Below are positions 3,020 to 36,700 of a stretch of 64,000 bases of DNA, piece after piece (positions within the stretch are counted from its first letter, which is position 1; the number at the start of each line of letters is the position of its first letter). Both the position numbers and the translations under genes were made by a program. Location: contig OZ037765.1 in the NCBI GenBank assembly GCA_964035545.1, positions 27,837,504 to 27,901,503 of the forward strand. The letters are read 5' to 3'. Source of the DNA: Bugula neritina. Its lineage: Eukaryota > Animalia > Bryozoa. The notes below the pieces were generated by a model, which was not told the DNA's origin, searched no databases, and saw nothing but the letters and a program-made list of their open reading frames with translations.

Positions 3020-5100
3020 ATAACAATTAGAATTAGTATTACTATTAGTATTAGTACAGGTACTACTAGTACTAGTACTACAATAAGTATAACAATATGA
3101 ATAACACTGCTTATAGTTATAGTTATAGGTATAAGTCTTAGACTTATGCGAATAAAATTAGGTATTACTATTAGTATTAGAGTAAATTAGTATTACATTT
3201 GCTATTCCAGTATTAGTATTACATTTACTATTAGTATAACTATAACTATAACTATTACTATAAGTATAAGTATACTCACTACAGTATGAGTATAGTTATA
3301 AGTTAACAATTTCAATTTGAATTTAGTTTTACTTTTATCACTATTGCCATTGGCGAGTGCTTTCTACTTTCTAGTTCTCGTGTATTAGCTTTTCAACTTA
3401 AAATTTACCTTGGCATAAGTTCATATTAATATTAAACCTAACAAAATTCAGCGGCTAGCTTTTGAATAGAAAGTTTGTCTAATTAGACCTAAAATTGAAT
3501 TAAAGATACTTTCAAGGGTTAAAGGGCGTATAAATATCACGCTCTGCTCCTATGCTAATGTAGTCTTAGAACGCAACATTTACTGGTTCTTATTTGGTCT
3601 TTTGTTGATTTTTCTACTAGTCCCCCAAACCAAAATATTATTGTATTGCATTTGCTTGTAGGTTAAAGCGTACAGCGATCAGTACTAGTTTGCGTTTAAT
3701 ATAAACGACCTTGATATAAACTGTGTAGTATGTAGTATACACTTCTTCATAATACAAATCATTATGACGAGCCCCCACCGTAGCTAAATGAGTATTTATT
3801 TTCTTGAAACCCGACTATTTTTCAGAATCTAGAATTGAAATTGTTGCAGCAGTAATAATAGTAATGCTAAATATAATAGTATTAGTATAATAAAGTATAA
3901 ATATGACTATAACTATAAGTAGGGGTATTACGATTAGTACTAGTACTAGTACTACTTGAATTTCACTCTAAATATTTTAGTTTTAGTTAATTATAAAACT
4001 CCAGGCTCCAGAGACTAAAACTTAAACTTAAAGTTTAAGTTAAACTTTTAGTTTTATATTTAAATTTATAACTTTAAGTTTAACTTACAAGTAGTAGTAA
4101 AAGTAGTCTAGTAGTAGTAGTACTAAAAATAGTAATACTAATAGAATAACACTAATAGTATTAATAATAGTAATACTACTACAAATACTAAGTCTAATAC
4201 TAATAGTAATACTAATAGTAATAGTAATACTAATACTAATAGTAATAGTAATAGCCACATCGAAATACGGTTTCCTAGTTTCTTTTCAAAAATAATCATA
4301 ATGATAATAATTTTTAATCAATATGAATATGATTTATTATTATATTTTGATTATCTATTAATAATAGACTAAGACTATGGCCCTAACTACTACTTTAACT
4401 TACTAATAGTAATAATAATATTATATTATATTTAGACTAAACCATAAGTTAAAGTATATCAATATGTATAAGCATAAGTATAGGCAGTAGCTATTATTAT
4501 TAGTAATAGTATTAGACTATTAGTACTACTACTGCTACTAGTGCTAGTACTAGTACTAGTCGTTTACCGGTTTAGTATTACTATAACTATTAGTATTCCA
4601 GTAACATCATTGGTATGAAATTGCATTTACTATTACCGTTGGTATCAATATTATTACTATAGCAGTGGTATAGGGGTTAGAGTGTTTGGCTTAGTACACA
4701 CGAAGTCATGGGCTCGAACCCGGTAAATGTCATTGGTGATGTTAGAAATATCTGAATAAGTCCTTAGCCTTATCTAACACAAACCCTTTCTATCAAGGGT
4801 TTCTCACAGGGATGGCAAGTGTAATCTTGCGTGAGTTATACTTGTAGTATTAGTATTAGTATTGCATTTTTATTGGTATTATTATTGTAGTTATAGTATT
4901 AGTATTATGATTCTTTTCTACTAATCTAATACTCCTTGCTGCTGCTGCTGCTATTACTACACTACCACACTACTACGCTACTACACTACTACACTACTGG
5001 ACTACTGGACTATTACAGTTACTACACTATTAGTACTACTTATAGTTATTACTTATAGTTATTAGTTATCATTAAACCTAAAGTGAGTATCACTAAACTT
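3020..5100. repeat. Degenerate hexamer/trimer-cadence low-complexity tracts flanking a CpG-containing island (about 3500-3850)
   Basis: Long runs such as tactaatagtaatagtaatac, agtattagtatt and actactagtactagt, with no single fixed unit. Confidence 0.7.
4662..4724 (+). mobile_element. tRNA-derived SINE head or tRNA pseudogene fragment
   Basis: A-box-like GTGGTATAGGGGTTAG and B-box-like GGGCTCGAACCC at tRNA spacing, but no intact acceptor stem. Confidence 0.5.
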
Positions 5101-6948: not shown

Positions 6949-14736
<7,788 letters not shown>

Positions 14737-16044: not shown

Positions 16045-19000
16045 ATGGCCGATAGTACTGTTGAGGTAAGTCTTGCTGGGATGGAAACTCAACTGATCAA
16101 TGGTGATGAGCAACACACGTCAGTGATGAGGACTCAGCTTAGTGGAGGGAGCAGCAATATGACATCAAATCTGATGGTTGTTGAAACAACTGATCATTCT
16201 ATTTGCCACAAACATGTTGCATTTGAAGAGGAAACAAACCAGAATGTTGTGTCTCCAAGTAACAAGTCTGAGGTTGTATTGTCAAGTAATCAGCAAGCAA
16301 ACATCAACAAAAAAGAAGCAGCTTTAGCTTTTGAGAAGCTGATCCAAGGAAGGTTACCAGGAAAAGATGAACCACAGCAATTTTCGGAGCCAAAACAGAG
16401 CACCATCATTGAGAAGACAACCCACATTGTCACTCAGTCAGAACCTAAAACTGATGCAGACAATTTCTCACAAGACAAACATGTGGCTGAGAATGAGCCT
16501 GTGACACGAACTGGCGTCATGCGAGAAGCTGATACTAATGACGAGCACGAGTACCCTGAAGAAGGTTTGAGTTTCTTCTTCTAGTTAAAATGGGTAACAT
16601 ATATTTTTGTATGAGTGGAGGAGTTTGAGACTTACTAAATAAAGTTATGTTCACTAGAAAAGCAAGATTGATGCTATGGGATGGGAGGTCAATGGTACTA
16701 ATTGACTGCATTGTGTTCAAACTAAATGATGTCTTTTTGGACACCTTTTTCTCAACTTCTGTTTTTAATAAACTTATATTTTTGCTGTTTGCTAAACATT
16801 GTACAAATTAGTTTTAGTAAGTTTGAAACTTATTAATGACAAACAAATTTAATGTATTTATACGGTCAAAAATTTGTTGCAAAAATTAGTTGTAAAAGCT
16901 TGAAAAATTAATCATCCTAATTTCTTTGATTATTTCTAAATGAGTCATATTTTACTTGATTTAGTACACACTGGAAATCTCCAGTTTTTAGCTATTTTTT
17001 ACAATTTAGCTGTTAATAAACATGGGTTTTTGCCCAAAACTAGTAAAATATGAATGAACACCACCTAAATAATCAAGGTTTTTCTTAATTTTGCTTGATT
17101 TTCCATGTTTTTTCCTAATTATTTAGCAAGTATCTTAATAATTAGGAAGAAGCATGGGAAATCAAGCAAAATTAAAAATAACTTTGATTATTTAGGTGTG
17201 TTCATTCATATTTTACTAGTTTTGGGCAAAAACCCATGTTCATTAGCAGCTAAATTGTAAAACATATAGCTAAAAACTGGAGATTTCCAGTGTGTACTAA
17301 ATTAAGTAAAATGACCCAAATATCAATTTGCAGCAAAAGATTGTGTTTTTATCAAAATACAAGTTATCTTGACAATTCTCTTTTCCTCGAACACAAGCTC
17401 TCTGATGCTACAACTTTGTTCTAGTTGTCTAATAACGTTGAATATTTTCAAACATTAGCAACATAAGTGGTGGCTAAGTGCAGTAATAGAGAAAATCCTG
17501 TGCTCTAGATGAGAAATGTAGCAAAGGAAGTTATGTTCTTACCAAAGTTTCAACTGGCGCCCTAAACTAAAGCTTATAAAAATACATAGGCTATTGAAAT
17601 TTCCCCACTATTGCATATACATCTAGATGTAGCAGCAAAATGGCTTATCGAAGGTGTGTTATTATTTTGAAGGCCTGACAAAAGCCATTCTTTCGAAGTT
17701 CAAGAATAAGAAATATGAAACCACGCCAATATATCGAGAAGAAGTCAATCCATCAACTGGAATCAGTGTGAAGGTTTTACCGTAATCAGTAATTCAATAT
17801 AATAATATTCATTTGTCTACACTTTCCAATAAACTATTAATATACAAGTGTGTACTATTTCTAGGATATATCTTCCCAATTGAAAAAAATCCCAAGTCTC
17901 ATGAGCACAGGCGTTTCTCAAGCTGCTGATATTGATGATGAAATATCAGAGACTAAAGGTGGGGTTTACGAGTCTCAACCTGTACTATTGAAAGATGTGG
18001 CGAAAGAAAATCAGAGGTATAATTGCTGAAAGTAATACATATATATAATTTTATACTCTATGAAGAGAAAAAAATCTAGCAAGCTAGCATAATATATGTG
18101 AATAGCATTCATTGATTGATCAAAGTTTTTAAGTTTAAAACATGCTTATAGTTAAAGATTGGCATGAAATAAAAGTTGGGAATAGTAATATTTGTTTTCC
18201 ACTATAGCATTATAAAAGGCAATTTTGTTACTCCAAGTATAGAGAATAAAGTGAATGTTACTATTTCTAAAACTATTCTTACCACTTACTCTCTATTTGC
18301 ATAGTCACATCAGTTAAGTACAAACTTGATTTTACACATTGTGAAGGATTATGAATAATACTGAATGTTTGATCAACAGAAATGATGAAGAAGAACTGCC
18401 ACCTGTAGGACTAACAAAGAACTTGCTTTCTGCATTTAAAGAGCTCCAGAGATCTGGAGAAAATGTAGGTGAAGCTTCTTTTCTTCTTATTTCATGTTTA
18501 TGAGCAATGTATGTTGATTGTAAGTTTCAGTCATAAAAATCAGGGCAAAAATTATGCTAAGTTATTTTTTTTAGAAATGAATGATATCAACTTGGTCACA
18601 TTTGCATTTCAATAAATATATGCGCTATTCTGTGGATATCATTTCTTATAAAGAAAATGGTACTGTGTAAAAATTTACAACAAATGAATAATAATTTTTT
18701 TCAATAAGCATCTATAATGAGCGCATGATGATTATAATATATTTTGTATGTATAATAATATGAAAACCCAATTATGCCCATTAACTATCGTCATTATTAT
18801 TGCAGACCGATAATTATTCTGATCATTATGTCTATGTTTTGTGTGTATGGCCCTAGCAAGTGCTTTCAAACTGCTATTCTACATCACAAAATGTTATATA
18901 CTATTACTGTATATACTATTACAGCCCTTTTTGCTGCAATTCTGCTAACCGAAATATATTGTAGTAAACATAAATAATATAAGCAAGTATCAGCTGTATA

Positions 19001-22000
19001 TAGGTTTTAGGCTGCAGTCATATGCTAATTTGAAAGTCCTAGTTATTCTATTTCAGCACTTAACTAGAAACCTAGAAAAATAGATTCTTTACTAAAAACC
19101 ATGCTAAAACTGTTGAAGTTTCTCGCAATAAAAAGATAGCGCCATTAGTTTTTGGTAAATTTTCCATAACGAAATAGTAACCACTGATGACTCATTTATT
19201 TTAGACTCCATTGAAGCAGCAGTCACGCGTTGGCAGCACATCTAACGTATCTGAGTATCTAAACATGTACAAGGAGGCATCTGGTTCTTGCAGTGAAAAT
19301 TTGCCAGTTTTACTGAAAAATGTCGCTAGAGAGTCTGACACAGTCTGTGAGAAAGAAGAGCTGCCAGTTCATGGTACATCTGTCTTTACACAAGTACCTT
19401 GCGTAACTTGTCATAGCTTATTGCTCTGAGCACCTATAAATGTCAAATAGATTATTTTTATTACTGTGTTGAACCATCGACCAATTGTTTCTTCAGACAT
19501 TATTTTAAAAAAAATGGGCTCAGGGAATTATGGCACAGGTAGTAATGGCACAAATGGAAAGTAGCTAAAAATGGCATACAGATGTACAGATGTTAAATTT
19601 CTCCAAACCCCAACCCTTAAACCCTTACCTCAAACTCAAACCCCCATCCCCAAACCTAAACCCCCATTCCACACCCCAAACCCTAATACTGAAATGTGCC
19701 ACTTTTACCTACTTTGCCATTTGTGCCATTATTACCTGTGTCATTATTACCTTTGCCATTTTTACCATGCCATTTTCACCTGTGTCATTTTTACTGGACA
19801 CCCTTCAGACATATGCAAATAGATTTTAAACTCACTAAGTTTATAATTGAAGTAACACCCATGCAGGTGTACTTGTTTATACTTATTCAACCTTATGATA
19901 CCCACAAGGTGGTTTTAGAAATAGTTATTTCTATTTTGTGTAGAGGCGCATTACTATAGCTGTAAAACTTTCTAAGACAGGTTTCAGTGTATGTACCAAT
20001 GGAATGTACATATTATATTTAATAGGAACTGCCAAAAACCTTCTCAACATGTTTACCAAGGTTAATGAAGATACTAAGAACATGAAGGCACAACTCCATA
20101 AGCCTTCAGGTGTGGCTAAAACGGTGAGTATAATCTCAGTGGAGTAAGTAATAGAAGAAAATGATAATATTTTATGATATTCTTGTGCACGTGTATACTT
20201 TCTCTTAAAATTACTTCAAGAACAACTTTATGATACATAGTTTTTATGTAATTTTCTAAAAGAGCAAGGTTGAAATGTTATGAAGTTGACATACGTTATA
20301 GTGTGGTGGTTCGTGGAACTACCAGCAGCACAACATGTAGGGTCGCGTAACTGACCCGGAACAATGGATAGCCAATTAGCGTAGTTGATAGTTAGCAGCA
20401 ATTGTAGTTTCCCGCTGCTAACTCAGTCGAAGCTAGAGTGTGAAATAGATTAGATGTGTAACTTGTTTGGAAATAATGTATCGTTTTTATGATGTATAAT
20501 TGTGTGTAAAATATACTCGTTCACTCGACTTATCCTGGTGCAGTTCTATAGTAAATAAATAGACTCTCTGGATAGCACATCAACCCTAAATCTGAAAATC
20601 TTAACAGTGGTGGCAGCAGTGGGATAGTGCATCCAAGATGGAGACTGAAAATGCTGGAACTCAACCACCGGCAATCGAAGGTGAGCGTAGAGACAATGCT
20701 GTAGAGACAATGCCTGTTAACCATGTAGTAGAAGAGCGAAGGGTTCCGCGAGAACTAGCTGAGGACCGCTACAGGTTAAAGGCGCCCACCTTCACGGGTG
20801 AAGAGGAGGTGGAACAATTTATCCAAGAGTTTAGCGACGTAATGGACGTCGCCCAGTGGCCCCCTAGGGTGGCCTTGCTGAAGCTTAGAATGGCATTGAT
20901 GGACAAAGCCAAGCCTTATGGGCTGGGCGTAGACATTGATAATATCTTTGCTTCTCTGCGGGCCCGCTTCGGCCTCTCTGCTACAGATGCCAGGGCCCGA
21001 TTGCAGAGGTTGCGGCGTGATCCCCGCACCCCGTTGCGGGAGCACGCCGCCGCGGTCATGAAGCTGGCACAGATCGCGTACAGCGACTTGCCCCCAGTCA
21101 ACCGCGAGAGGTATACCCTCGACGCTTTCATAGCATCTGTCGACGATCTGGGTCTCCACCACCAGTTTCTAGCTAGGGGAGTCACCACCGTTGAAGATGC
21201 TCTGACTGAGGGGGAAGCTTACCTCCTAGCTAACCAAATGCATAAAAGTCGCGGAAGCTCCCGTCAAGTGGAGATAGACCGCGCAGACACGGCCGCGGGA
21301 CAAGGGGAGGAAACCCCCGCCGCGGCTGCCGTGTCCCAGTTGGCGACGGCATCGAAAGTCACTCAACTGACAGACATGCTAGCCAAGTTGATAGCAACAC
21401 TGACACCACAAACCCCAGTGAGTACCGCCCCTGAGCCCATGCGGCCATCGGCGCCGCCACAGGGAGAAACAGTCAGTTTTTGCTGGGAGTGCGGAAATCA
21501 AGGACATTTCCGCCGATATTGTCCCTTCCTAAATCAGGGGTTAAACTACCGCGGCCCGCAGATGTTCCCACCTTCCGCGGGCCGACGATGAAACCTCCAG
21601 GGAAAAAGAAACGCAGGTCACCCAGACGGGTACCGCGTACTGGCAACCAACAGTGGCAACAGCCACGACGGACCAGCAAGGGGCTTCGCCCCGCAGCTGC
21701 CTTTTCTATGCCCCTTCACAACAGATTCACAGGGCTACAAGTCCAAGAATCTGGATGGGAGCACACAAAGGTAGCTGAGAATCTAGCCTCGGCACCCCCG
21801 AGGCCTACCTACCACCGCCCCAAGAGACCTCCTTCGCGACCCAAAGCGAGGGAGGTACTCCCTGCGAGAGTAAGGCCTGAAGGGAGAGTTCAGGTGCAGC
21901 CCCATGGGAACAGCTATTTCTTGCCCGGTAAACTGGAAGGCAAAGCTGTTACTTTTCTCATTGATTCGGGCTGTACCGCAAACCTCTTAAGCCGCCAACT

Positions 22001-25000
22001 CTTCGACACCCTCAGTGCTAGGGTCAGGGGCGAGATGGAAGCATACGAAAGGGAATACGGCACCCTAGCTGACGGGTCGTGCCTTCCCTTCTATGGTATA
22101 ATTGAGCTGACGGGACGAGTCCGCGATCAAACGATCCAAGAGACGTTCATCGTCAGTCAGCTCAAGGAGGATGCTATCCTCGGGATGCCGTTCCTTAAAC
22201 GGCACGGATGTCACATAGATTTTAGCAGATCTGCAATGATGATGTCCGGGCGGGAACTCGCCTGCGTCGACAAGTTCGGCCGCCCTTTAGTGGGAGGTGT
22301 GCAAGTGGTACGCAACCGTACCATACCAGGCCGCTCCCGGGCTACCATTCACTGCAGGGTGAATAGTAACCGGATCTCTGGACTCGGGGTGGTTGAAGGC
22401 GCGCACGAAAAGATCCAACTTGCCAGCAGTCTGAATCAGCTGACTGAGCAAGGGGAGATCTTAGTGCAGTGCGTCAACCCCTTTACCGAGCCTATCAAGC
22501 TCCCGGCTGGGTCGATGCTGGGCCGTTTTCACTCTGTTCAGGAGGGAGACGTAGGCCCGTCGCTGGATGATGCGACGGAGGCACTCCCTCGACACCCTAT
22601 TCAGGGACGAGGGGCAGTCCCAACACATCTCCGGGAGTTATATGAAACAGCCAGTGGCGGCTGCGCGAGTAACAGGGAACGCCAAGCTATGGCTAAGTTA
22701 CTACGCGACTACGGTGATGTGTTCAGCAGCGGAGAGCATGACGTGGGACTGACTGGAATTGTCAGACACGAAATACCGCTGACTGCAGGGACAGTCCCTG
22801 TCCGGCAGCCCACGCGCAGGCTGGGGCCGGAGAAAGAGAAGGAGGTTAGCCGACAAGTACGGGATCTTCTGGACCGGGGACTGATAGAGCCCGCCCATAG
22901 TGCGTGGAGCTCGCCAGTCGTACTGGTCCGGAAGAAAGACGGCAGTTGGCGGTTCTGTGTGGACTACCGCAAACTCAATAGCGTAACCATACAGGACGCC
23001 TACCCTCTACCTCGTATTGACGAGTCATTGGACGCCCTAGCCGGCAGCAAGTACTTCAGTACGTTAGACTTGCTAAGCGGCTATTGGCAGGTTCCTCTGA
23101 GTCCCGACGCCCAAGAGAAAGCGGCGTTTATCACACGGGACGGTTTGTGGAAGTGGAAGGTGCTGCCCTTCGGGTTAACCTCCGCCCCAGCCACCTTCCA
23201 GAGGCTGATGGAACAAGTCCTTAGCGGACTCCATTGGAAGACACTGCTGGTCTACCTCGATGATGTCATCGTAATCTCTCCAGACTTCGAGACACATGTC
23301 AGTCGTCTGCAGGAGGTTTTCGAGAGACTCCGAGGTGCCGGTCTTAAGCTCAAACCTTCCAAGTGCGCTCTATTGCAGCCGGAGGTCAAGTACCTGGGGC
23401 ACGTTGTCGGTCGGAACGGCGTGGCAACGGATCCCGAAAAGGTACGGGCAGTAGAAGACTGGGTCACCCCCCAAGACTTGACCGGACTCCGGGCTTTCTT
23501 GGGGCTGGTAGGGTATTACAGGCAATACATACCAGACTTTGCGGGCATAGCCCAGCCGTTAAACCGGCTCACCGCAAAGGGAGTGACGTGGCAGTGGACT
23601 CCAGTCGAACAAGAAGCGTTCGACCGCCTCAAGGGCTGCCTCCTAATGGCGCCCATCTTGGCCTACCCAGACCCCACTCTGGAGTACATCCTAGACACGG
23701 ACGCCAGTGACCAGAATGTTGGCGCTGTGCTGTCACAAGTGCAGGAAGGCCGAGAGGTAGTAGTAGCCTACTACAGCAAGTCTCTCTCACCCGCTGAACG
23801 AAATTACTGCACTACCCGCAAGGAGCTGCTGGCAGTAATCAAGTCAGTGAAGCACTTCAGACCATACCTATATGGCAGGAAGTTCCGGCTGCGTACGGAT
23901 CATGCCTCGCTGATCTGGTTGTGCAGGAGAGCAGAGCCCTCTAGTCAGGTCGCCCGGTGGCTCGAAATCCTAGCTGAATTCTCATACCGGATCGAACATC
24001 GACCGGGCAAGAGACACAGCAATGCGGATGGGTTGAGTCGTCGACCTGACGGAGGTTGCAAACAGTGTCTCAACATCGAGAGGAGGGATGGAGGTCCCCC
24101 ACGATGCGAGTTGGAGACGCTGGCTCATCACGGAGCACCGTTTGACTGGGATCAAGGTCAACTCAGGCAAAGAGTTGATGAGTCCCCGGAGGATGTACAA
24201 AACCTCCGCGCCAACCCTGTACTGGCCGGTAATGTTCGAGAGCTGAAGAAGCTCCAAGAAGAGCTGCCTGGAGTCGTGGCGGACATATACCGGGCCAAAA
24301 GGGAAGGGCGACGACCCAGCGAGGAACGCATACGACAGGGATGCGCCGAATTCCGGCTATACTGTCAGCGTTGGGACTCGCTGCGGATCGGGCAGGATGG
24401 GTTACTAACCATCTCTCTAGCTGCCAGCGGCAGACACCCGGAAAGGAAGAGGGTGGTCTGCCCCACAGCCATCCGCCGTGAGTTGATTTGGGATACTCAC
24501 AAGCAGGCCCACGCAGGGGTCAAGCGAGTGATGTCCAAATTACGACTTCGGTGGTATTGGCCACAAATGGAGCGTGATGTCCGGCTCAGAGTCAAACAGT
24601 GTGAGATCTGCCAGGCCAGTAAGCATAGCCGCCCCCCTGGTGAAGCAGGACGGCGGAGGCTATACGCTGGTAGGCCCTGGCAAGTAGTCGCTGTAGACCT
24701 GGTCGGACCCATGCCCCTGACCTCCAGAGGCAATAATTGGATCCTAGTACTAACCGACCACTTTACTAGGTGGGCGGATGCTCTGGCTATCTCAGATGCA
24801 TCAGCCCCAACAGTGGCCAGGGCGCTAGACCAACATGTATTCTGTTATTTTGGGCTCCCCGAACAGATACACTCTGATCAAGGCGCTCAATTCCAGTCTC
24901 AACTGATGAGCGACCTTTGCCGCCTCTGGGGAGTAAATCAGAGCAGGACCACCCCCTACCACCCTCAAGGTAACGGGGTGGTGGAGCGCAACAACCGGAT

Positions 25001-28000
25001 GCTAGGTGATGCACTCCGGAGTCTCCTCCTTGGACGAGGTCAAGAGGAATGGGATACGGTGTTGCCGCAAGTCATGCGTGCATACCGTAGCACCCCACAC
25101 ACCAGTACTGGTGAGACCCCAAACCTCTTGATGCTCGGGAGAGAGACTCGTGTCCCTGACCATCTCACCTATCACGTTCCAGAGCAAGATAACTCAGTCC
25201 ACGAGTATGCCAGTGAACTAGTGGAACGGATGAAGGCCGCACACGATATACTGCGCCAACAGCAGTGGAAGGTGCGGCACGAAGATTCCGATGAACCACC
25301 CCTCTACCAGAGGGGAGATAAGGTGTGGATGGTCAATTACCGTAGGCGCCGCGGACAGGCTGATAAGCTGAAGCCTAAGTTCGTGGGCCCCTACGTGGTT
25401 GTCGAGGCTATGCCCAATCATACGTACAAGATTGAGCGCTCAGGACAGGTATCTATCCAGAATGAGTCTCGCTTGAAACCGTATTGGGCTAGCCCCGGCG
25501 GAGTGGGAGAAGCCCCCCCGTTGTTAGAGCCCAGGAGGCAGACAACAACGCGCGGGCGACGGCGGCATGGACCTGAATACGAAGTGGTCATACCGCGGGA
25601 GGAAAACTTGGTGAGAGAGGAGCGGCAGCTTTTGTCAACAGAAGCGTGTCCGCCACCGCCAAGTCTAATTCCATCACTTCCAGAAACCGTGCCGGTTCCG
25701 GAAGTGCAAACCCCCACGGAGGGAGGGGCTCCATTCGGAGAACAAGAAGAGGTGACTGCTGACGGTGAAGTAGAGACGCCATTAGAGGCCCCTACTAACA
25801 AACCGGCAAGCGTGTCACCCCCCCTAGAAAGGGGACAGCGTACGAGGCAACCCCCCGCATACTTGAAGGACTTCGTATGTGACTGCGTTAAAAGCGGCAC
25901 GCATGAAAGTCTAGGGGAAAACCGTACGAGAAAAGAATCGAGCAAATGTGGGAGTTGTCAACACCACGGAAATATCAACTTTTGCATCGGCGGAAATAGA
26001 AATGAAATTCATCCGCCGGGTGCACAAAGTCTTAATCACGCACCCCAACCACGTTGCTCGATCTTTTCATACGCTGATGCAGTCAGGAGTAGACGTGTTT
26101 CTAAGCAGTAGTTCAAACCATTTCACACATTCAGTATGTCTTACGACAACAGATCGTGGGGTGAGTTAACTATATCTTAATACGAAACTAGATTGCATCG
26201 CTCAGCTCTGACTCACTGAGTCAATCGAGCTGGAGATAGGTTAGTGAAATACCGTAGTAAGAACTCAGTTGACTTAGAGATTTTTATAATCTCATTGCAA
26301 TACGTGTTCTATCTGACTATTCACTACCATAAATCTCTACGAGGTAACTGAATTAGGAGTTGCCAAGCTGTTCAAGCTGACAACACAGCAGTGTACTGTA
26401 TTAACACTGTTGAAACTTTTTCAGATTACACTCGACCCGCTACAACCAGGGTACGGGATAGAACACTTCCCGCTCCGTATCCAGAGGAGTATGCTAGCGG
26501 TGACCGGCCTGAGCCACTACGCCGCCGTTGGCGGTGGGTGTCTCCACAAACAGAAGAAAAAATAGAAACAGCCTGGGGGTCCAGAGGACGGACGAGATGC
26601 CAGATCTGTGGTGAAGATTGCGCCTCTCACCGCTCCCTTAAACTACACGTCAATGCTCATCTCCTACTGACATTCTGCCCCTGCGGGTACAATGATGTGT
26701 ATCCCTACCCCGTCACCAGACACAGAGCGGCGGGCTGTTTCCCTGGAGAAAACTACGTGGTCGACGCTAAGCTATACCCGGAGTTCCTCACACTTATACG
26801 ACCTCTGGTGAAGAAGGCCATGCTGTTAGCCGTTCTGTCCTCGGGGTTCCAACGTGTGTTAGACAACGCCCGCCAACAATCCCCGTTGGTGTCTGACCGC
26901 CCTCAAATCACATACACCCCCGAGGAAACTACATATCCAGAAGAAGGAGAGATCTCCCCTACCCCGGCGAAGAGACGAACCAAGTCCCCCAGTCCACCCT
27001 TGCGCCGCAGACGGACACCGTCCCCCGACCCAGTCCGCCTAGCCACAGTAGAAGAACGCCTCCTGCGATTACAAGAAGAATTCACCCAGCTGGCACCAGA
27101 TCTACTTAACACTACAACCGGACTCTTCCAGCTAAAGGGATCCGTATGCCGTATGAAACGGAAACTGCGTACATGCCAAGCCAAGCACCGGCGTGCCCAA
27201 CAAGGACTCTAGTTAGGCTACCCAGAATACTCTGCAACTTCACATCTTGTGAGGAACCAAGATCTCGTGCAAATGCTTAACTGCTAGACAGGTTATTCCT
27301 TGTCTAATACCACAGCTAGCTAGTATTCCTCGTCTATCTACAGCTGGCCAATTGTATGCAACGGATCGTTACGATGACTCTGTATTATTATTATGTCTCT
27401 TCCTGTATATTATGTGTTATTTTTGTCCACTGATGTATGTAGTTATTAATGAATGTTTTTTTATATATATCAGAAAGATGGCTTTCTGCTGGTGGGGGCG
27501 GTGTGGTGGTTCGTGGAACTACCAGCAGCACAACATGTAGGGTCGCGTAACTGACCCGGAACAATGGATAGCCAATTAGCGTAGTTGATAGTTAGCAGCA
27601 ATTGTAGTTTCCCGCTGCTAACTCAGTCGAAGCTAGAGTGTGAAATAGATTAGATGTGTAACTTGTTTGGAAATAATGTATCGTTTTTATGATGTATAAT
27701 TGTGTGTAAAATATACTCGTTCACTCGACTTATCCTGGTGCAGTTCTATAGTAAATAAATAGACTCTCTGGATAGCACATCAACCCTAAATCTGAAAATC
27801 TTAACAATAGTGCAATAAAATGTTTATTTTCTAGTGTATAAGTTATACATTTACTTTTTTTGCTAAATCAACATTATAGATGCTGTAAATAAACAAATAT
27901 ACAGTAAGTAAAATAGTAGAAAGTTATGTTTGCACTTTTTCACCCTAGCTGACTTAAGTAAACACACCTAACTTTCTATATTCATCGTATCACAGCATTT

Positions 28001-30164
28001 TAGTCATTTACAGCAATGGAAGCCAAAGAATTTACAATCTAAGTCATCTAAACAGTCATCAATTGCCACTAATTCCAACTCTGTGACTGAGTCAGCCAAA
28101 GCAACAGAAGTTTGCAGAGAAAATGATGGACAGGTAAACGAAGAGGAGTTGCCAACATCTGGTGAGCTGCTGCTGTACTGGAGAGAGTTTAGTTTCTCAA
28201 CTAGTCCCCCCTATCCTCGTAGTAACTGAATCTATTGTCAGCAGCATTATCTGTAGTCTTGTTATGCAGAAATATTATTAATATGTAGCTTCCAATAACT
28301 CAAAGCTTTTTGATTAGCTGAGATTTCGATAGAGATAGGGGAGAATAAGTATGGAAGAATCAAGAATATAGCAATACCTGTGGTGGTATTTTTCATAATT
28401 ATTTGCAGACAAATCTTTAGCATATGATGGAAGCAAAACTGTTAATAAACATGTAATAGTTTTGCTTACTTTTTTATTTTAAACATTCTAATTATTATTG
28501 CTCTTATGACTCTATTATGAGTAAATTGAAACGTCCTTTAATGCTTATTTTAGTTTTTGAAGTCTCATTTTCATGTCATTTTTATAAATATTCATTATAA
28601 GGAATGTCAGTCTATATTAGTCAATTTACTGATTAGTATTGAATATTTGTAAAGCTGATAAGTTGATTTTATTGTAGGGTGTACACAGGGTTTGCTGGAC
28701 AAATTTAGCGAGATGAATTCTAAAGGTGTTAAAGGCAATGCAGATGAGGTAAATGTTTAAATCAAGTATAGAACCAGCTGCATGTTGATTGTTTTATAAA
28801 AAAATTACCACGCATGAAGTCAAACTGTATAAAAACAGCTATCTATGAAACTCTAAAGCTGCAAAAAAAACAGACAAAAGTCATTAGATAATGCTAATAT
28901 TTTAAATATTTGATCGAACTTCAGCAGAATAATATAAAGTAATATAAACTATAACTGTTACAGCTAATATATGATTCTTGTAGTTTTCTTAAATGAATAG
29001 TTTGCCTCGAATGACTTTTTTCTTAGGCTAATGAAAGCTTAGAAAAGAACTGTAACAAAGAGAAACCTGAAAAGAAGAAAACCTCTGGAGGCCAACTCTC
29101 TGCTTTGTCTAGGTATTTCTTATCTTTTAATATAGTTTTTATACTTACAAGTGTAATACTAAATGAACTATATAGAAATTATTTGTTTTCGTAACAATAG
29201 AAAACAATTTCATTAGATACAAATTGCTGATTTACTAGTTATTTTATAACTTAGACCTTTAAACTTTTGTATCAATTGCTTTAAAGATATACAATTTCTT
29301 ATGCGCATACAAATGCTAACTCGATTTTGCACTCACATTGCTGTAATGCTTGTACAGGTTTAAACAAATGGAACAGAAGGACAATTCTAGTACTCAGCAT
29401 TATCCTTCTGCAGCAGCTCGAAAGGTAAACAGTTGAATATTGAAACTGAAAGTCTGTATGGAGCTGCAATGCATGTAATATCATGATCCAGGGTGCTAAT
29501 TGCACTCTGGTTTAGAAGTTTTGACCATTGAAATATAATTTAAAATATAAAGTTTACATAATAACATTGAATCCTAAAGTTGTTTTTTAACAGTTTTAAA
29601 TATCACATCACTTCAGCCAATGTACAATCAATGCGCTAATAAATTATATAAATTTTATTTAAATTTAAACTACTGAATATTCAATTTATATTAGCATATT
29701 TTTTGCAGCTTGAACATACTACCTAGTTTTAAATACTTCCATCTCCTTTACACTACAGTAATGCTAAAAGTTATAGTATTGCAGACCTGCACCTTGAGTT
29801 GCAAGTGATAAAACAACTATAAACATGGTCATATATTTATAGCCTTTGAGAGATGATCCAAAGAAGGTATGTAAAATAGTGTTTTGCCCTTGACCCCCAA
29901 GCCTGATGACCAACTGCCTGCATTTATTTGTGACTTCCATGTGTCCATATAATAATCAAATAAAACTTGTTCCACAATTTATGCAATCCTTTGCTTAGCT
30001 TTAAATTACACTTCATTGTATCTACAAAGTCATACAGCATTACACATTAAACTTTGTTTGATCTTATTTGCAGGTTTCGTAGAAGTTGGAGATGGCTGTT
30101 CAGTGCAACACTGCTAACAATTTTCTGTTATTTGCTACTCAGTGATATAAATATTCAAACATAG
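16045..30164 (+). CDS. Uncharacterised multi-exon protein with four approximately 40-aa repeats (ExxP...VxRExD...EELPxxGxTKxLLxxF)
   Basis: Phase-consistent GT-AG exons: 16045-16564, 17673-17773, 17865-18016, 18380-18464, 19205-19373, 20026-20123, 28014-28161, 28678-28748, 29027-29112, 29358-29424, 29843-29866, and a last exon from 30074 (stop at 30082 or 30164 depending on isoform). The repeat is rebuilt across exon junctions, which supports the model. Confidence 0.8.
16941..17318. mobile_element. Foldback/MITE-like long inverted repeat (about 180-bp arms, 14-nt loop)
   Basis: 16941-17122 is the near reverse complement of 17137-17318, e.g. tagtacacactggaaatctccagtttttagcta versus tagctaaaaactggagatttccagtgtgtacta. 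Confidence 0.85.
19501..19802. mobile_element. Non-autonomous inverted-repeat element (MITE-like) with TGCCA subrepeats, a degenerate (CCCTAA)-like core and 10-bp flanking direct repeats
   Basis: Arm 19521-19579 pairs with about 19695-19752. CTTCAGACAT occurs at 19491-19500 and 19803-19812. Confidence 0.7.
20302..20606 (+). repeat. 5' LTR (305 bp)
   Basis: TGTGG...TTAACA, identical by eye to 27502-27806. Initiator-like TCAGTC at 20423, AATAAA at 20554, and a 9-bp stem GTTAGCAGC/GCTGCTAAC at 20391-20422. Confidence 0.98.
20608..20625 (+). promoter_or_regulatory. Primer-binding site complementary to the 3' end of tRNA-Leu
   Basis: TGGTGGCAGCAGTGGGAT lies 1 nt after the LTR. Its reverse complement ATCCCACTGCTGCCACCA matches animal tRNA-Leu(AAG/TAG)-type 3' ends plus CCA. 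Confidence 0.85.
20638..21591 (+). CDS. gag: Gag (317 aa) with CCHC zinc knuckle
   Basis: CWECGNQGHFRRYC fits CX2CX4HX4C; capsid-like APTFTGEEEVEQFI region; position right after the PBS. Confidence 0.93.
   Translation: METENAGTQPPAIEGERRDNAVETMPVNHVVEERRVPRELAEDRYRLKAPTFTGEEEVEQFIQEFSDVMDVAQWPPRVALLKLRMALMDKAKPYGLGVDIDNIFASLRARFGLSATDARARLQRLRRDPRTPLREHAAAVMKLAQIAYSDLPPVNRERYTLDAFIASVDDLGLHHQFLARGVTTVEDALTEGEAYLLANQMHKSRGSSRQVEIDRADTAAGQGEETPAAAAVSQLATASKVTQLTDMLAKLIATLTPQTPVSTAPEPMRPSAPPQGETVSFCWECGNQGHFRRYCPFLNQGLNYRGPQMFPPSAGRR
21480..26111 (+). CDS. pol: Pol polyprotein: aspartic protease, reverse transcriptase, RNase H, integrase (intact)
   Basis: LIDSGCTAN (PR); WRFCVDYRKLN, LPFGL, YLDD (RT); DTDAS, KELLAV, TDH (RH); H..H..CEIC, DLVGP, SDQG, VERNNR, PKFVGPY (IN). 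No stops over 1543 codons. Confidence 0.97.
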   Translation: MLGVRKSRTFPPILSLPKSGVKLPRPADVPTFRGPTMKPPGKKKRRSPRRVPRTGNQQWQQPRRTSKGLRPAAAFSMPLHNRFTGLQVQESGWEHTKVAENLASAPPRPTYHRPKRPPSRPKAREVLPARVRPEGRVQVQPHGNSYFLPGKLEGKAVTFLIDSGCTANLLSRQLFDTLSARVRGEMEAYEREYGTLADGSCLPFYGIIELTGRVRDQTIQETFIVSQLKEDAILGMPFLKRHGCHIDFSRSAMMMSGRELACVDKFGRPLVGGVQVVRNRTIPGRSRATIHCRVNSNRISGLGVVEGAHEKIQLASSLNQLTEQGEILVQCVNPFTEPIKLPAGSMLGRFHSVQEGDVGPSLDDATEALPRHPIQGRGAVPTHLRELYETASGGCASNRERQAMAKLLRDYGDVFSSGEHDVGLTGIVRHEIPLTAGTVPVRQPTRRLGPEKEKEVSRQVRDLLDRGLIEPAHSAWSSPVVLVRKKDGSWRFCVDYRKLNSVTIQDAYPLPRIDESLDALAGSKYFSTLDLLSGYWQVPLSPDAQEKAAFITRDGLWKWKVLPFGLTSAPATFQRLMEQVLSGLHWKTLLVYLDDVIVISPDFETHVSRLQEVFERLRGAGLKLKPSKCALLQPEVKYLGHVVGRNGVATDPEKVRAVEDWVTPQDLTGLRAFLGLVGYYRQYIPDFAGIAQPLNRLTAKGVTWQWTPVEQEAFDRLKGCLLMAPILAYPDPTLEYILDTDASDQNVGAVLSQVQEGREVVVAYYSKSLSPAERNYCTTRKELLAVIKSVKHFRPYLYGRKFRLRTDHASLIWLCRRAEPSSQVARWLEILAEFSYRIEHRPGKRHSNADGLSRRPDGGCKQCLNIERRDGGPPRCELETLAHHGAPFDWDQGQLRQRVDESPEDVQNLRANPVLAGNVRELKKLQEELPGVVADIYRAKREGRRPSEERIRQGCAEFRLYCQRWDSLRIGQDGLLTISLAASGRHPERKRVVCPTAIRRELIWDTHKQAHAGVKRVMSKLRLRWYWPQMERDVRLRVKQCEICQASKHSRPPGEAGRRRLYAGRPWQVVAVDLVGPMPLTSRGNNWILVLTDHFTRWADALAISDASAPTVARALDQHVFCYFGLPEQIHSDQGAQFQSQLMSDLCRLWGVNQSRTTPYHPQGNGVVERNNRMLGDALRSLLLGRGQEEWDTVLPQVMRAYRSTPHTSTGETPNLLMLGRETRVPDHLTYHVPEQDNSVHEYASELVERMKAAHDILRQQQWKVRHEDSDEPPLYQRGDKVWMVNYRRRRGQADKLKPKFVGPYVVVEAMPNHTYKIERSGQVSIQNESRLKPYWASPGGVGEAPPLLEPRRQTTTRGRRRHGPEYEVVIPREENLVREERQLLSTEACPPPPSLIPSLPETVPVPEVQTPTEGGAPFGEQEEVTADGEVETPLEAPTNKPASVSPPLERGQRTRQPPAYLKDFVCDCVKSGTHESLGENRTRKESSKCGSCQHHGNINFCIGGNRNEIHPPGAQSLNHAPQPRCSIFSYADAVRSRRVSKQ
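21540..21604 (+). promoter_or_regulatory. Predicted -1 ribosomal frameshift signal: G_UUA_AAC plus H-type pseudoknot
   Basis: Heptamer 21540-21546 in the gag frame, 5-nt spacer, stem 1 CGGCCCGC (21552-59)/GCGGGCCG (21577-84), and loop TTCCC (21565-69) able to pair with GGGAA (21600-04). Pol is in the -1 frame. Confidence 0.78.
26136..27212 (+). CDS. Retrotransposon ORF3: spliced zinc-finger / SP-R-rich / coiled-coil protein (about 270 aa), not env
   Basis: Exon 26136-26160 (MSYDNRSW+G), intron GTGAGT...TTTTTCAG at 26161-26424, exon 26425-27212 in frame. CQIC-x12-HVNAH C2H2 finger followed by CPC-x12-H-x4-C. Confidence 0.8.
27491..27501 (+). promoter_or_regulatory. Polypurine-tract-like G-rich primer site
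   Basis: GGTGGGGGCGG directly abuts the 3' LTR. Confidence 0.65.
27502..27806 (+). repeat. 3' LTR (305 bp)
   Basis: Exactly 7200 bp downstream of the 5' LTR; no mismatch seen. Confidence 0.98.
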
Positions 30165-30749: not shown

Positions 30750-33700
30750 TTAATTAGTTGTGTCTTTAACAGAACTCTTGTTAGAATACTGGCTTTGTAA
30801 TGCCTTTTCAATGTGTTGTTTACTTATGGAAAGTACATCTTGAATCTCCTTCTGACGCAAGGACATGTGCTGAGCATCTACTGCACCAGGTGGTGTCTGC
30901 TGACCAGAGAGGGATTCCTGATCACTCATCTGACTAGCTTTCTGAGAGTTGGCTCTTCGCACGCCTTCTAGAATAGACTTGTGAGACGACACCACTTGTT
31001 GCTTAATCTGCTGCTTACGGTCAATACCAGACTGTCCAAGATGGACGCCGAGCTCTGCCTTCGGACATATAGGCTGATGGTGCAGGACATGCTTCACACT
31101 ATTCATGACTTGATGGAGGTTGTCTTGAGCCTGCTTGTTGTGTGGCTCAAACACAGACTCCGGGACAGCCAGTTGACTTGGCTTTATCAGGTTCTCCCGC
31201 TCGTGTCCAGCTGTTAATACTCTCTTTACGATACTTTGCACCGTGTCAGAATTGGGCTGACAATGTGAGAAGTTAAAATTGTTTCTGGTCATTGGTGAGG
31301 GAACCTCACCTCTGGGGTATGGACGGCCACTAGATAAATATTGCTGTACAAATTGTAACTCTTTGTCTAAGTTTTCTAACTTCTCCTTCTTTGGTCCAGT
31401 TGAATTCAACTGCAGAAGCTTTCCGACTATTGTCCGTAAATGGTGAGCTGCACCCACATCTAATGGAGGTGTGTGAGGTCTAGACCCGTCACTGTTGTAT
31501 CCACCACCGTCTTCGGATTGCTGCTGATTGCATCTTGCACAAGAAGCCATATGGAGCTTCTGTTTGTTCAGTAAATACTCTTCTATCTGAAGTTCATGAG
31601 CTCTTTGTAATCGCTCCTTTTCTAAGGTTTGCCTGAATAAAAATAATGAAAGAAAATTTAAATTACATACTAGTAGTTCTATAAACATAATTCATAAATG
31701 ATGTTTTATAATAATAATGAAAATGTGAATTCCAAAAACTACCTTTCAATGAGCTGCCTGAATTCATCGTCATCACTTGATAAGTCACAAGCGTCAGCTC
31801 TAGAAAGCTAAACATAAAATTCAATAATTGTGAAATGGCAAAAGGTTACAAGATTATGGTCTTTTAAAAAAACCAAATGTGAAATAAAATGTGGAAACTA
31901 CAATTGAAATAATTTGTAACTATCAGTTTCAAAAAATGTGTTTAGGATAGCAAAAAATGATGTATAGCAAGCATTAGCCGATCACCAGAGAAAGGGACAA
32001 TTTCACCACACACACAAACATGGGCTGCAGGAGCTGATAAGCTGATGAGAAAGGTAGCCTGTACATATTATACATAAGATACGGTTAACAGCAAGAGCTC
32101 AACTATAACCAAGGTGAGTAAGGGAGGGTTTGACAGAAGGATACCTGAAAATTACGGTCTGCAGGGGTTTGAACTGGTCCGCCATTGCTTACTCGTTTCA
32201 CCATTCGTGCTATCTTAACAACACTAGTCACTGGATCACCCTCGTATGTAGGAGGCTGAAATTTTTGTTGATTACTAGAAGGGAGGACGTAATTTAGGCT
32301 GGCTGCATGATTGTATGTAGGATTTATCTGCCCATTATTCTGGAGCTGAGAAACAGGATGGCTAGCTGCCATAGCTGCCGACAGACTCTCAGCATTCAAA
32401 GATGAGTTGAGAGAATGCAGACCGGCATGGGAGCTGGCAGCACTTTCATTGGTGGTTAGCGAATCAGAAACAGTCGAGACAAACGATAGATTGGCAGCTT
32501 CTGACTCGGCAGCAAGGGCATCAACAATAGCAGCGTTAGCAGCAGATGCAGCACTGCAATGCTCGCAGCTTTCAATGTGAGATTCAAGTGTATGCCCACA
32601 TGGAATAGAATGTTTTCTCTCAAAAATATTGGCTAACTTCTCTGAGAGAATGTTGTTAGCTCTGTTGCCCTCGGCTTCAACCAGATGTTCCCCGAGGCCT
32701 GCAGGGACGCTGTCAGTAGTCTTACGGCGACTCTCTTCTGCCTGCTGCGTCTGCTTACCAGCCGTGTCCATGGAGGGGCTCCAGGACATGCACCTCTGAA
32801 CAGAAAGTAGTTTACTCTCGGGCTGCGCAGGCTGGTCACTAGTAGTTAAAGTAGTTGGGTGCGATGAATAGGAAATTATTTTCTGTCTATTCACAGAGCT
32901 ATTGTGATTATCATAGCAAGAAGTAAGATCTGCTACATGATTAAGACTAGGACAGATAGTAGAATGAGAGAGTGAGTTAGCATTGTCCCCCGCCACCACT
33001 GCATCTAATACTTTATCAGAGTTCTCAGAGGAAACATGTATATTTGCAGCCTCTTTATAGAAACACTCAGACGTCAACTGCTCAGAATTACAGTGAAGAC
33101 AGTTTGACGAAACCGAGAGCATGCAAGGTTGAGCAAGAGAGCAATTTGGCTCAATCAAGTTGTTAACACTATTCACTATAGCACCAGTGCCAACACATTT
33201 CGTCTGCAGTTCTTGACAGCTACTTACAGAAGAGGCTCCATCTAACACATCTGAAGTTAACTCTTTAGCGTTCTGTTGGGGATCTTCAACAGTACTCGCA
33301 ATAGCATTAGTAATGAAAGGTCCATGTAACGACGAAGGTGTGGGATTAGTAAGCAAAGGACCAGAAGCAGTGGTGGTAGCAGCATGAAATTGGCGGCCAC
33401 CAGCTACCTCTAAGCCACCCACAATCTCGCCTTCTGACACTACATTAATGGTGGAAACCGCATCCAGAGCTGGAGCATCTGTGTTCACCTTATGTCTTGT
33501 AGAGGTGGTGGATACCACAGGCTCTGCTGTACTGACACTGGTGACTGATGGGTCTGGGGTGATGGGAGAACCAGCTTTACTATCTGCTAAATAGTCATAT
33601 ATAACATATATAACATCACATATTTCTACTCCAAGAATGCCAACTTATCAATCTAGATAATCTATGCTGACTCATAGAGCAGAGACTGTACACAAATCTG

Positions 33701-36700
33701 TCAGCTGATGATTACTATTAGCTCACCAGTTGATTTGCCGCACATGCAGTAAGAAATATAATACAACATGAAGAACTGTTCATCGCTAGACAAACAACTT
33801 GCAGTAGGTTTAGCTTACCAGAAGGTTCTTTGACAGGCCCAATAGAGAACCTCCCAACTCTGGTAGATTTGGCTTGTAGACTGTTGAGTCGTGCATCAGG
33901 ATCCTCGGCAGCGGGCGTGGTGAGGTCAGAAGACGAGTCTACTTCCGGGATAGTCTGAGACTGGAGGACACCAGCACTTTGAGGAGCTCGGTCTAAGACA
34001 GACTCATTCTCTGCAGGACTCGTCTGCGTGGTGGAGGAGCTGAGCTGAGGGGCTGACATGGTGTTGGAGTTGGCGTATAGAGAGTTGGTGGGCTCAGCTT
34101 CAGGTATGATGCTCCTACAAAACAGAGCTGACGGATGTTGATCCAACAGGCAGCAATTATTACACACCCGACAGCGTCAGCCCTTGGCAGCGGAAAGACC
34201 ACACACATGCATGTGACAGCTGAATACTGTAAGGTGACATGAACTCACTAGCTCTCACTCATAGCGAAAACCAACAGTTGAAGAAAACATAACAGCGTAT
34301 GTCTTAGTACAGACACAATGTGAACAGCAATTCCAACAACAGCGAACATATGAACAATGCTGTCGATACAACCAACTCACCACGGATTGGCTGAAGATGT
34401 GACAAACTTAGGAGTAGGAGAGTGTGACAAGCTCCTGCTAAAACAATTACATACTGCAAGTGGACCAGTAGTTGGCTAAACAGGAGGAATGTATAGAGTA
34501 GTTTAATCAGATACGTATCAACATGATGAAGCAGAGCAGAGTAATGAACAGGGGAAACAAGCCAACAACTCTGGTGGACTTACCTAAAACCAGGCACTGG
34601 TTTTATTTTAAGTAATGTGGGTGATGAGCAACAGCTTAAACTATAAGATATATTTCATCTATGAATATGATAAAGCAAACTGAAGTATCCATGATTATAG
34701 AACTGAATTTTATTATAGACAAATTGTAACAATGGGTTTGTCTATGCAGAAGTTAGGAGAAAACAACAAAACAGAATAAAAGCTTTGCTTTGCAGAATAA
34801 TAGCAAGTTTCAGCAGACAGTATAAGATAAAAGTCATGATATAACAGCAGGAAATGTTGTGAACTAGAGAGAGAGAGAGAGACTAAGCTAGTAGTCACTA
34901 GGAAACTAATCAATATTGTCTGGAAGTGGGATTAGCAAGAGGCCAGCCAATACCAAGGCATTGCTCCTGCATCACACTTTCTATTGCTAGACTACTTAGT
35001 ATAGGAATATGAAGCATTCGGCATTGCTAGGTTTCCAGCTCTCTGGTCAATTTGAACAAATGTTGGTACAATACAAGACAGCAGAAAGATGACAGTACCT
35101 ATGCTGCTGATCTAACACAGACGGGTGAGTCAGCGACTGAGTCTGAATGCTGTTGTAATTCCAGTTTTCTTCTTGCCTTCCTTTCCCCAAAAGAGTCTCC
35201 AGACTCTTCCCCAGTGCATTCATATCCAGGCCTTTCTTGGCAGTCTTATTCTCATCAGCCTGTAAGAGCATTACTATACAACAGCACGTGTTGGGAGAGA
35301 TTGCATCATCACATAGCTGGGGATGCAAGGGTTAAGAATAAACAGCTCTATAGCTTGTAATGGCCATTTCACATCAACTCCCAAAGGTTAACTTGAGACT
35401 TTAAACACAATAAATCAATCAGAAGAATGACTAAAATAGAAAGTGTAATGCTGATGGGAAAGCAAGCGGGTTGAGCCAGCACCTGCATCTCTCCACTTAG
35501 TATTCAATTCAACACTTGCATCCCTGTGTGCAGCTGAGTAGAATATACAAGACAATGTAAACAGTGGGTATGCTATAGTGCTCTAGATGGTGAAGTTTAG
35601 CATGAAGTGACTGAAAATTTACCAGTATTCGATAATAGAGAGTAAGAGAAGTGTTGAATTAGGACACAGCTATAATTAATACATAATCTGATTAAAATAA
35701 TCAATCATCTCTGGTCAGAAATATTGAATAAACCGGCAACTAAGGGGTCAAGAATGAGGCGGGTGAACAGGTAACTGGTGGATGAAATATGCGGCTGAAT
35801 AAGCTTATAATAAAATATGATGGTAGTAACTGTAAGCAGCAGCAGAAAGAGCAGCAGCGGGTGTAGCTACAAGTGCAGCATTTCTTACAGAAGACATAGT
35901 TGAAAGTTGTTGTTGAGAAGATTGTGAGGCTTTTCGAGGACTGGTTGGAGACATTGTAGTGCCCTGAAATTACAACCACAGAAAATACATCCTCCATACA
36001 AACTACGTACTCTGTATTGTATTCCAAACACGCTGAGTGAAGTGTAAAAGCAATAGAAGAAGTGGGACTTACAGCGTGGTTAGGAGTACCGGGATGAGCT
36101 GTCGGAACATTTGATCCATTCATGGCAGCCAAAGGATGTTTAGCTGACGAGGCAGCAGCACTACCTTGTACAGGAGTGGAACTACCGCTTCCATCCAACT
36201 GTAGAGTCATTGGTAAACCTGTTTGAATTTGCAGATTTTGAGGAAGTGATGTTAAAGCAGGAAGTGGCATAGAAGAGGAGGGAGTAGCCACTGTGTTTGT
36301 CTGACGGGATACCATGTCACTATGTGACGCCGCCCGGAGTCTAGCCGGTTCATCCAGTGAACCCCCATCTTCGCCACCAACTGATGTTGTGGAAGGAACA
36401 GACACCAAAGACTGGCTTTCTGCTACACTTATCTATAACCAATGTAAACAGTGCTATAGCTGTGCTCAGCAAACTGCAGCAGTGATATGCTATTAATTTA
36501 TCAGCAATGTCAATAACTCTGAAAAACTAATATTTATGCTTGGTATGCTTGATAGGAGTCTTCAAGCCACAAGTCGGAATAGCTAGAAGTGATTGGCAAC
36601 AAAAAAGGTATTTTTCATTAAGACCACCAGTTTAGAGTTTTGGACATAACATAAAAAGGTATTGAGTACTTAGTATTTCTGCCCCAACAGCTCGGAACTA

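Follow-up and report, generated by a model that had tools for sequence, protein, structure and literature searches.

An ATG-less zinc-finger ORF3 predicted to be spliced from a gag leader in a Ty3/gypsy retrotransposon of the bryozoan Bugula neritina

How does a retrotransposon express a third gene that has no initiation codon of its own, and why does it keep an intron-like segment ahead of that gene when the element is copied through RNA? Both questions are raised by a 64,000-nucleotide stretch of the Bugula neritina genome (assembly GCA_964035545.1, contig OZ037765.1, positions 27,837,504 to 27,901,503 of the forward strand), hereafter the window, to which all coordinates refer. The locus at 20302-27806 is an intact Ty3/gypsy long terminal repeat (LTR) retrotransposon (Metaviridae), in which gag and pol are followed, in the position of env, by a further open reading frame, ORF3. 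An earlier note on this DNA had proposed two in-frame splice routes into ORF3: route (a), from a donor that closes a short ATG-led mini-exon behind pol, and route (b), from a donor inside gag. We favor, with moderate confidence, a reading in which ORF3 is an ATG-less third gene made by splicing gag codon 15 to position 26425, and in which its product is a nuclear export regulator comparable to Rev and to the CERV protein of the Caenorhabditis elegans element Cer1.

A probable gag leader ahead of ORF3

When checked against the sequence, every coordinate and phase put forward earlier was borne out, save that the spacer from the pol stop to the mini-exon ATG is 24 nt long, not 25. The ORF3 acceptor does need a phase-1 donor, as had been argued, since the last base of its AG is 26424 and the ORF3 frame begins at 26427. 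Donor (b) cuts after 20680 and is preceded by 43 nt of gag (14 codons plus one nucleotide). Across the 7.5-kb element the pattern G/GTRAGY, where the slash marks the cut, matches only twice, at donors (a) and (b), and the flanking host exons carry the same two donor hexamers. By a plain pyrimidine count, the ORF3 acceptor lies outside the top 14 of 280 YAG sites.

Route (b), from 20680 to 26425, is very probably the main route to ORF3 in this element. That its message is a subgenomic mRNA of env type, led by gag, is supported by the record of a relative that spans the junction and by the footprints of donor and acceptor. The search for ORF3 homologs gave 72 close matches; 22 records, taken from these and from profile-search matches, reach the acceptor. 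In one of them, P0024, the first 14 residues are identical (14/14) to the start of the gag homolog P0128, and this leader runs straight into the first ORF3 residues, exactly at the junction predicted for the window. As AG is all that the leader and ORF3 ends have in common, neither a misjoin in assembly nor a chance deletion seems likely. At the acceptor, 21 of the 22 relatives read S/L-D/G and continue upstream, which is what an unspliced YAG/R in phase 1 requires.

The donor side was compared in gag homologs, where 63 of the 120 listed matches (130 found) retain the leader. The three residues over donor (b) are E in 53/62, G in 55/63 and E in 63/63, with neighboring leader columns at 37-56% (columns 8-13) and 40-65% (columns 17-21). 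Among the eight rows without G at the donor codon are five with Ser and one with Arg, residues that can preserve the GT. The E-G-E is kept in both the 10- and the 14-residue leader classes, whose gag cores are 36-88% identical (13 representatives). Conservation in relatives, which had been named as a way to check the splice sites, is thus found, at the level of residue footprints, for donor (b) and for the acceptor.

The spliced RNA of route (b) would be about 1.5 kb long and would retain R, the primer-binding site (PBS) and the polypurine tract (PPT), the PBS because it lies upstream of donor (b). We think it likely that this RNA is sometimes copied back into DNA as a mini-element of about 1.76 kb (predicted 1,761 nt). 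A retrotransposed mini-element in host DNA would explain the P0024 junction in a 5.3-kb contig.

Several observations weigh against this account of ORF3 expression. The only record of its kind among the 22, P0024 is one protein from a contig of 5,320 nt, and its junction is known from the protein alone; a retrotransposed spliced copy is the simplest reading of the contig, and it may instead be a transcript. The gag rows are not independent, since about 26 of the 63 have a common leader type, and conservation likewise exceeds 80% in leader columns 2 and 7. An in-frame Met follows the acceptor in 18 of 21 relatives, so that in these the leader need not supply the start. In the window's own family, junctions were looked up in the assembled contigs of 4 of 7 listed runs, and neither 20680>26425 nor 26160>26425 is among the 15 of 127 joints displayed; the sole RNA run, X2 (21 contigs, a small share), has no cover over 26212-26481, which includes the acceptor, and both results are uninformative. 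The pol fragment P0258 is likewise on a 5,320-nt contig and may neighbor P0024.

The second donor and the retained segment

The proposal of two routes holds for route (b) through the junction in P0024; for route (a), the mini-exon leader occurs in none of the 22 ORF3 records. The donor of route (a) has indirect support, and nothing supports its ATG or an internal promoter. The indirect support comes from P0025, which reads through the segment between donor (a) and the acceptor and has a GTG-Ser-Tyr start exactly 88 codons ahead of the acceptor codon. This is the place of donor (a) in a segment of 265 nt, the length given by an extra base at 26268 that is present in most run X1 depth. Furthermore, in 3 of 23 pol relatives an Arg-stop end falls on the codon at which donor (a) lies in the window. 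The GT of donor (a) is probably conserved, to judge from these alignments; the segment is partly conserved throughout, so the apparent conservation may be neutral.

An acceptor-like YAG directly precedes the mini-exon ATG. When the 48-nt spacer before donor (a) was shuffled 20,000 times, 14.7% of the shuffles contained an ATG in frame and free of stops, and the mini-exon start is therefore not beyond chance. The window's subfamily (3 of 21 relatives) has no Met downstream of the acceptor; should there be a second transcript, this subfamily would depend on an ATG of this kind. We regard donor (a) as a secondary site whose use is somewhat doubtful, if close to an even matter, and it is unlikely to serve its own ATG from an internal promoter. 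Read-through of pol into the mini-exon by way of a copy-specific stop was also considered and rejected, the stop position being common to 9 of the 23 relatives that reach the pol-tail motif. That short motif, at 26070-26111 (+), is strongly conserved at the end of an otherwise variable tail, is present in 23 of 120 listed tail matches, and overlaps the acceptor-like site at 26082.

These observations bear on a foamy-like arrangement with two promoters, in which an internal promoter in the pol tail would drive route (a), ORF3 would be a Tas-like DNA-binding transactivator of the LTR, and route (b) would supply a second isoform. It would draw together the full consensus and correct phase of donor (a), the GTG-Ser-Tyr start of P0025, the Arg-stop ends and the Met-less subfamily, and the best, non-significant fold matches of ORF3 are indeed DNA-binding C2H2 proteins. 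We nevertheless hold it to be improbable, given the missing mini-exon leader and the chance rate of the ATG, and because in foamy viruses the internal promoter sits at the 3′ end of env (PMC13220597), a gene that the element lacks. Foamy viruses resemble the element in having an accessory regulator (Tas/Bet) downstream of the structural genes and alternative splicing, and differ in their internal promoter in env and in a pol made from its own spliced mRNA (PMC13220597). The element, in contrast, lacks env and has gag and pol overlapping in the −1 frame with a slippery-like site, an organization other than that of foamy viruses.

Donor (a) could also close a cassette exon of the LTR transcript, whose inclusion would bar ORF3 and so limit its output or feed decay. 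Acceptor-like YAGs end at 26082 and 26134, and by phase arithmetic an included 26083-26160 would meet the pol stop, while 26135-26160 would leave in phase 0, with the frame closing after 46 codons. We give this arrangement little credence, as neither internal exon is found in any record or read and both acceptors are pyrimidine-weak.

The remaining question is why the segment at 26161-26424 persists. It had been described as AT-rich, and it is, with a guanine-plus-cytosine (GC) fraction of 0.379 versus 0.562 in pol and 0.558 in ORF3. The other non-coding parts of the element have the same composition (LTR 0.39, 3′ untranslated region 0.363), so that AT-richness marks non-coding sequence and not specifically an intron. 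From its retention, regulated splicing or a foamy-like internal promoter had been deduced, a step that does not follow. This segment forms the last 264 nt of the 5.7-kb intron of route (b), acceptor included, and no special mechanism is needed to retain it. A copy made from route-(a)-spliced RNA would lose route (b), as the acceptor would be gone, and a copy of route-(b)-spliced RNA loses gag-pol, so only unspliced RNA founds complete elements. Retroelements with spliced messages normally copy their unspliced RNA, as two papers describe (PMC10309623; PMC5408684). Some mechanism of incomplete splicing or export is required, but as a general rule.

The segment folds better than shuffled sequence (z −2.97, 1 of 200). 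A Rev response element (RRE)-like structure within it was considered and is unsupported over the background folding of the element. Along the element, 12 of 22 gag-pol/intron tiles (20617-26424) have z ≤ −2.9, the lowest being −8.45 at 24049-24312; the three ORF3 tiles (26425-27216) and both LTR tiles fold no better than shuffles. We read this contrast as structure specific to the genomic RNA.

A predicted nuclear regulator in the env position

Translation of the route-(b) message is predicted to give a protein of 276 aa. ORF3 contains two putative zinc fingers, a C2H2 and a C-x-C..H..C type (Table 1), and alignment finds the eight ligands preserved in 39/41 to 48/48 rows. In the structural model, the fingers give way to a block of helices, then to a disordered linker rich in Arg and Ser/Thr-Pro (seven SP/TP sites in residues 152-199 plus Arg clusters) and finally to a 53-residue C-terminal helix. 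The model has a pLDDT (predicted local distance difference test) of 62.9, with the finger region and the C-terminal helix confident. No Pfam family scores above cut-off for ORF3, and the best score in the ESM Atlas, 0.89, falls on C2H2 clusters and is a lead only.

On these features we predict that ORF3 regulates the element from within the nucleus and is not an envelope. An env-like fusogen would suit its env position, env-type splicing and long C-terminal helix. However, ORF3 has no transmembrane segment (maximum Kyte-Doolittle value 1.51) and no signal segment, has one N-glycosylation sequon only, finds no viral glycoprotein match in BFVD, and carries zinc-finger and nuclear localization signal (NLS)-like features, which together make a fusogen extremely improbable.

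In the mechanism that we favor, LTR-driven RNA spliced from 20680 to 26425 would yield the zinc-finger/coiled-coil protein, which would act in the nucleus in the manner of Rev and Cer1 CERV, enabling the export and use of unspliced element RNA. The 264-nt segment would be kept along with the acceptor it holds, autonomous copies being founded by unspliced RNA. A default-spliced message for a nuclear, Arg-rich, helix-oligomerizing protein fits the logic of such feedback, and for this reason the export role is preferred; taken by itself, the assignment of ORF3 as an RNA-export regulator is tentative and made by analogy. Three results lend it no direct support. Fold searches of PDB and BFVD with the ORF3 model gave nothing at E ≤ 0.001, nuclear export signal (NES) patterns occur only at residues 71-81 and 124-134, inside predicted folded helices, and 10 of 27 other element tiles fold better still than 26161-26424.

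Rex and Rec are export factors grouped with Rev. As described in PMC10309623, Rev resembles ORF3 in being a spliced product with an Arg-rich segment and an oligomerization-type helix, both of which are predicted for ORF3. In contrast to Rev-type systems, no exposed leucine-rich NES and no outstanding structured response element were found here, and Rev has no zinc fingers.

The closest parallel in expression is CERV, in which gag-derived exons are joined to an ORF in the env position and which is required for export of the genomic RNA (PMC10309623). Like the present element, Cer1 is an LTR retrotransposon with a non-env ORF in the env slot, a spliced mRNA that shares the gag N-terminus, and a genomic RNA with usable splice sites; its product also has a Cys-rich finger, an NLS-like motif and a coiled-coil element. 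CERV differs in its 517 aa, five exons, H/M/G domains and C4-type loop, and is reported there as nematode-restricted (PMC10309623), whereas ORF3 would have 276 aa, two exons and a C2H2 plus C-x-C..H..C pair; the two were compared by description only. ORF3 thus appears to resemble CERV in expression scheme, with no kinship to the CERV protein family implied. Among LTR retrotransposons, CERV is the only trans-acting export regulator found in the literature searched (PMC10309623).

Two further groups of elements offer partial parallels. In the Idefix subclade of errantiviruses, a Gag peptide is joined to env by splicing (bioRxiv 2023.08.03.551782); there too the third ORF comes from a subgenomic RNA that opens with a Gag-peptide exon, but it encodes an envelope protein of the membrane, whereas ORF3 has no signal or transmembrane segment. 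A spliced ORF3 RNA is therefore shared with errantiviruses, by way of the relative P0024, and membrane glycoprotein features are lacking. Bdelloid rotifer LTR elements have a non-env ORF3 after pol, typically spliced messages and possible host capture (PMC5408684); their ORF3s are of env-like, GDSL/SGNH or DEDDy types, and the word "zinc" is absent from the text of that paper.

The bdelloid elements, which capture unrelated ORF3s (PMC5408684), also bear on the possibility that ORF3 is made by route (b) but has another role, as an anti-silencing or host-modulating factor or as a captured host zinc-finger passenger. The same double-finger domain is found in annotated proteins of Watersipora subatra and Bugula neritina. 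Even so, ligands, helix and splice footprints are conserved across relatives of 45-60% identity, which argues against a neutral passenger, and the finger tree gives no root for the direction of transfer. We consider such another role rather unlikely, though less so than the arrangement with two promoters.

A profile search returned 125 ORF3 relatives at 50% clustering. Those with names are all bryozoan, four clusters among 30 proteins looked up (W. subatra and B. neritina). The annotated bryozoan proteins P0326/P0430, P0373, P0433 and P0436 have one or two copies of the double-finger domain; some such proteins also carry the C-terminal helical tail, and the locus tags of the two Bugula genes are consecutive. 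Among 46 finger domains placed in a tree, the window clade is supported at 100/97, and the annotated proteins are scattered among distant rows. The tree is unrooted and its group table contrasts only two labeled groups. When metagenome, viral and prokaryote collections were searched for loci matching the ORF3 alignment, none was found. We found no description of this zinc-finger/coiled-coil family in the literature searched, which comprised open papers and did not cover Repbase or GyDB annotations. Two things are new here, the family to which the ORF3 protein belongs and what appears to be a retro-copy of the spliced message; the splicing of a gag leader to a gene in the env slot has precedents in Idefix env and Cer1 CERV.

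More distant ORF3-like records (P0329, P0364 and P0416) have phase-1 acceptor-like residues ahead of the finger, and in P0329 one frame runs from the pol tail into the finger. A distant gypsy element, L001 (23-58% pol identity by segment), has at 4394-4967, downstream of pol, an AT-rich spacer, an acceptor that is rich in T and ends at 4720 in phase 2, and an ORF of C2H2-like type. Comparison of this ORF with ORF3 by hhalign was non-significant, and its 12 bits against a broad finger profile might be scored by any C2H2-like motif.

The element, its surroundings and what it may mean

The following features of Ty3/gypsy elements are present: TG...CA LTRs, a target-site duplication, PBS and PPT, and gag followed by protease, reverse transcriptase (RT), RNase H and integrase. 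The PBS is one that we take to be tRNA-Leu-like, and no tRNA gene is found in the window. The gag CCHC knuckle falls below the Pfam cut-off (zf-CCHC, E 0.14). The pol frame is open from 21435. Run X1 has a depth of about 100 in the flanks and of 22,205 to 170,176 in element bins (a depth, not a copy number), which points to a multi-copy family. With integrase as the query, metagenomes yielded two distant loci and viral contigs none, and neither locus shows the donors.

Table 1 Features of the element (window positions; ORF3 residue numbers for the fingers)
Feature	Position	Strand	Remarks
Target-site duplication, 4 bp	20298-20301 and 27807-27810		flanks of element
5′ LTR	20302-20606	+	305 bp, TG...CA, identical to 3′ LTR
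5′ LTR motifs	TATA-like 20495, initiator (Inr)-like 20521, AATAAA 20554	+	motif scan
PBS, 18 nt	20608-20625	+	complement ends in CCA
gag	20638-21591	+	317 aa, single CCHC knuckle; 130 homologs
gag codons 1-14	from 20638	+	leader exon of route (b)
Splice donor (b)	20681-20686	+	phase 1, within gag codon 15; E-G-E footprint; junction record P0024
Candidate −1 frameshift site	21540-21580	+	slippery-like heptamer and GC-rich hairpin; from sequence and frames, putative function
pol	21588-26111	+	protease, RT, RNase H, integrase, SH3-like, disordered tail; Pfam
Candidate mini-exon	26136-26160	+	ATG-led, 25 nt (8 codons + 1; A at −3); pol frame; use unproven
Splice donor (a), candidate	26161-26166	+	full consensus, phase 1 to mini-exon ATG; probably conserved
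AT-rich non-coding segment, 264 nt	26161-26424	+	3′ end of route-(b) intron and whole route-(a) intron; hairpin just before acceptor
ORF3 splice acceptor	26417-26424	+	phase 1; sole T4+YAG in element; footprint in 21/22 relatives
ORF3 exon	26425-27212	+	261 codons from 26427, stop at 27212; ATG-less, first Met at residue 132
ORF3 C2H2 finger	C58, C61, H74, H78		
ORF3 C-x-C..H..C finger	C84, C86, H99, C104		
PPT, G-rich	27491-27501	+	
3′ LTR	27502-27806	+	305 bp, identical to 5′ LTR

The element lies in sense orientation within a phase-0 intron of a host gene (381 nt without the element), whose exons at 20026-20123, 28014-28161 and 28678-28748 (+) stay in frame. Between them, the acceptor of the element and the poly(A) signal in its LTR could trap transcripts of this gene. 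Elsewhere in the window, a 21-nt tandem array of about 31 registers at 8022-8930 (+) forms an open frame behind a WD40-like exon fragment, and a long imperfect inverted repeat at 16949-17312 (arms 52-99 nt) is possibly a miniature inverted-repeat transposable element. Large host-gene exons occupy 30750-47517 (−); the ORF at 46366-47517 ends in a kinase-start-like sequence, presumably resembling WNK kinases, and has no Pfam match.

In its widest form, which we regard as speculative and unlikely, the argument would be that a clade of marine-invertebrate gypsy elements independently evolved the regulation of complex retroviruses. It would have a regulator exchanged with bryozoan host genes, two routes to that regulator (the gag-leader splice and a mini-exon from an internal start), a switch between spliced and genomic RNA, and a retrotransposed mini-element supplying the regulator in trans.

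Because the first Met of ORF3 lies so far into the frame, standard ORF calling misses the first half of the protein. The double-finger domain ties these elements to annotated bryozoan genes and is thereby a candidate for capture or domestication, and a young, high-copy element with clean splice sites is a directly testable system. If the export reading is true, ORF3 would be a second, unrelated family of export regulators in the same slot, and control of unspliced RNA in the style of complex retroviruses would have arisen repeatedly.

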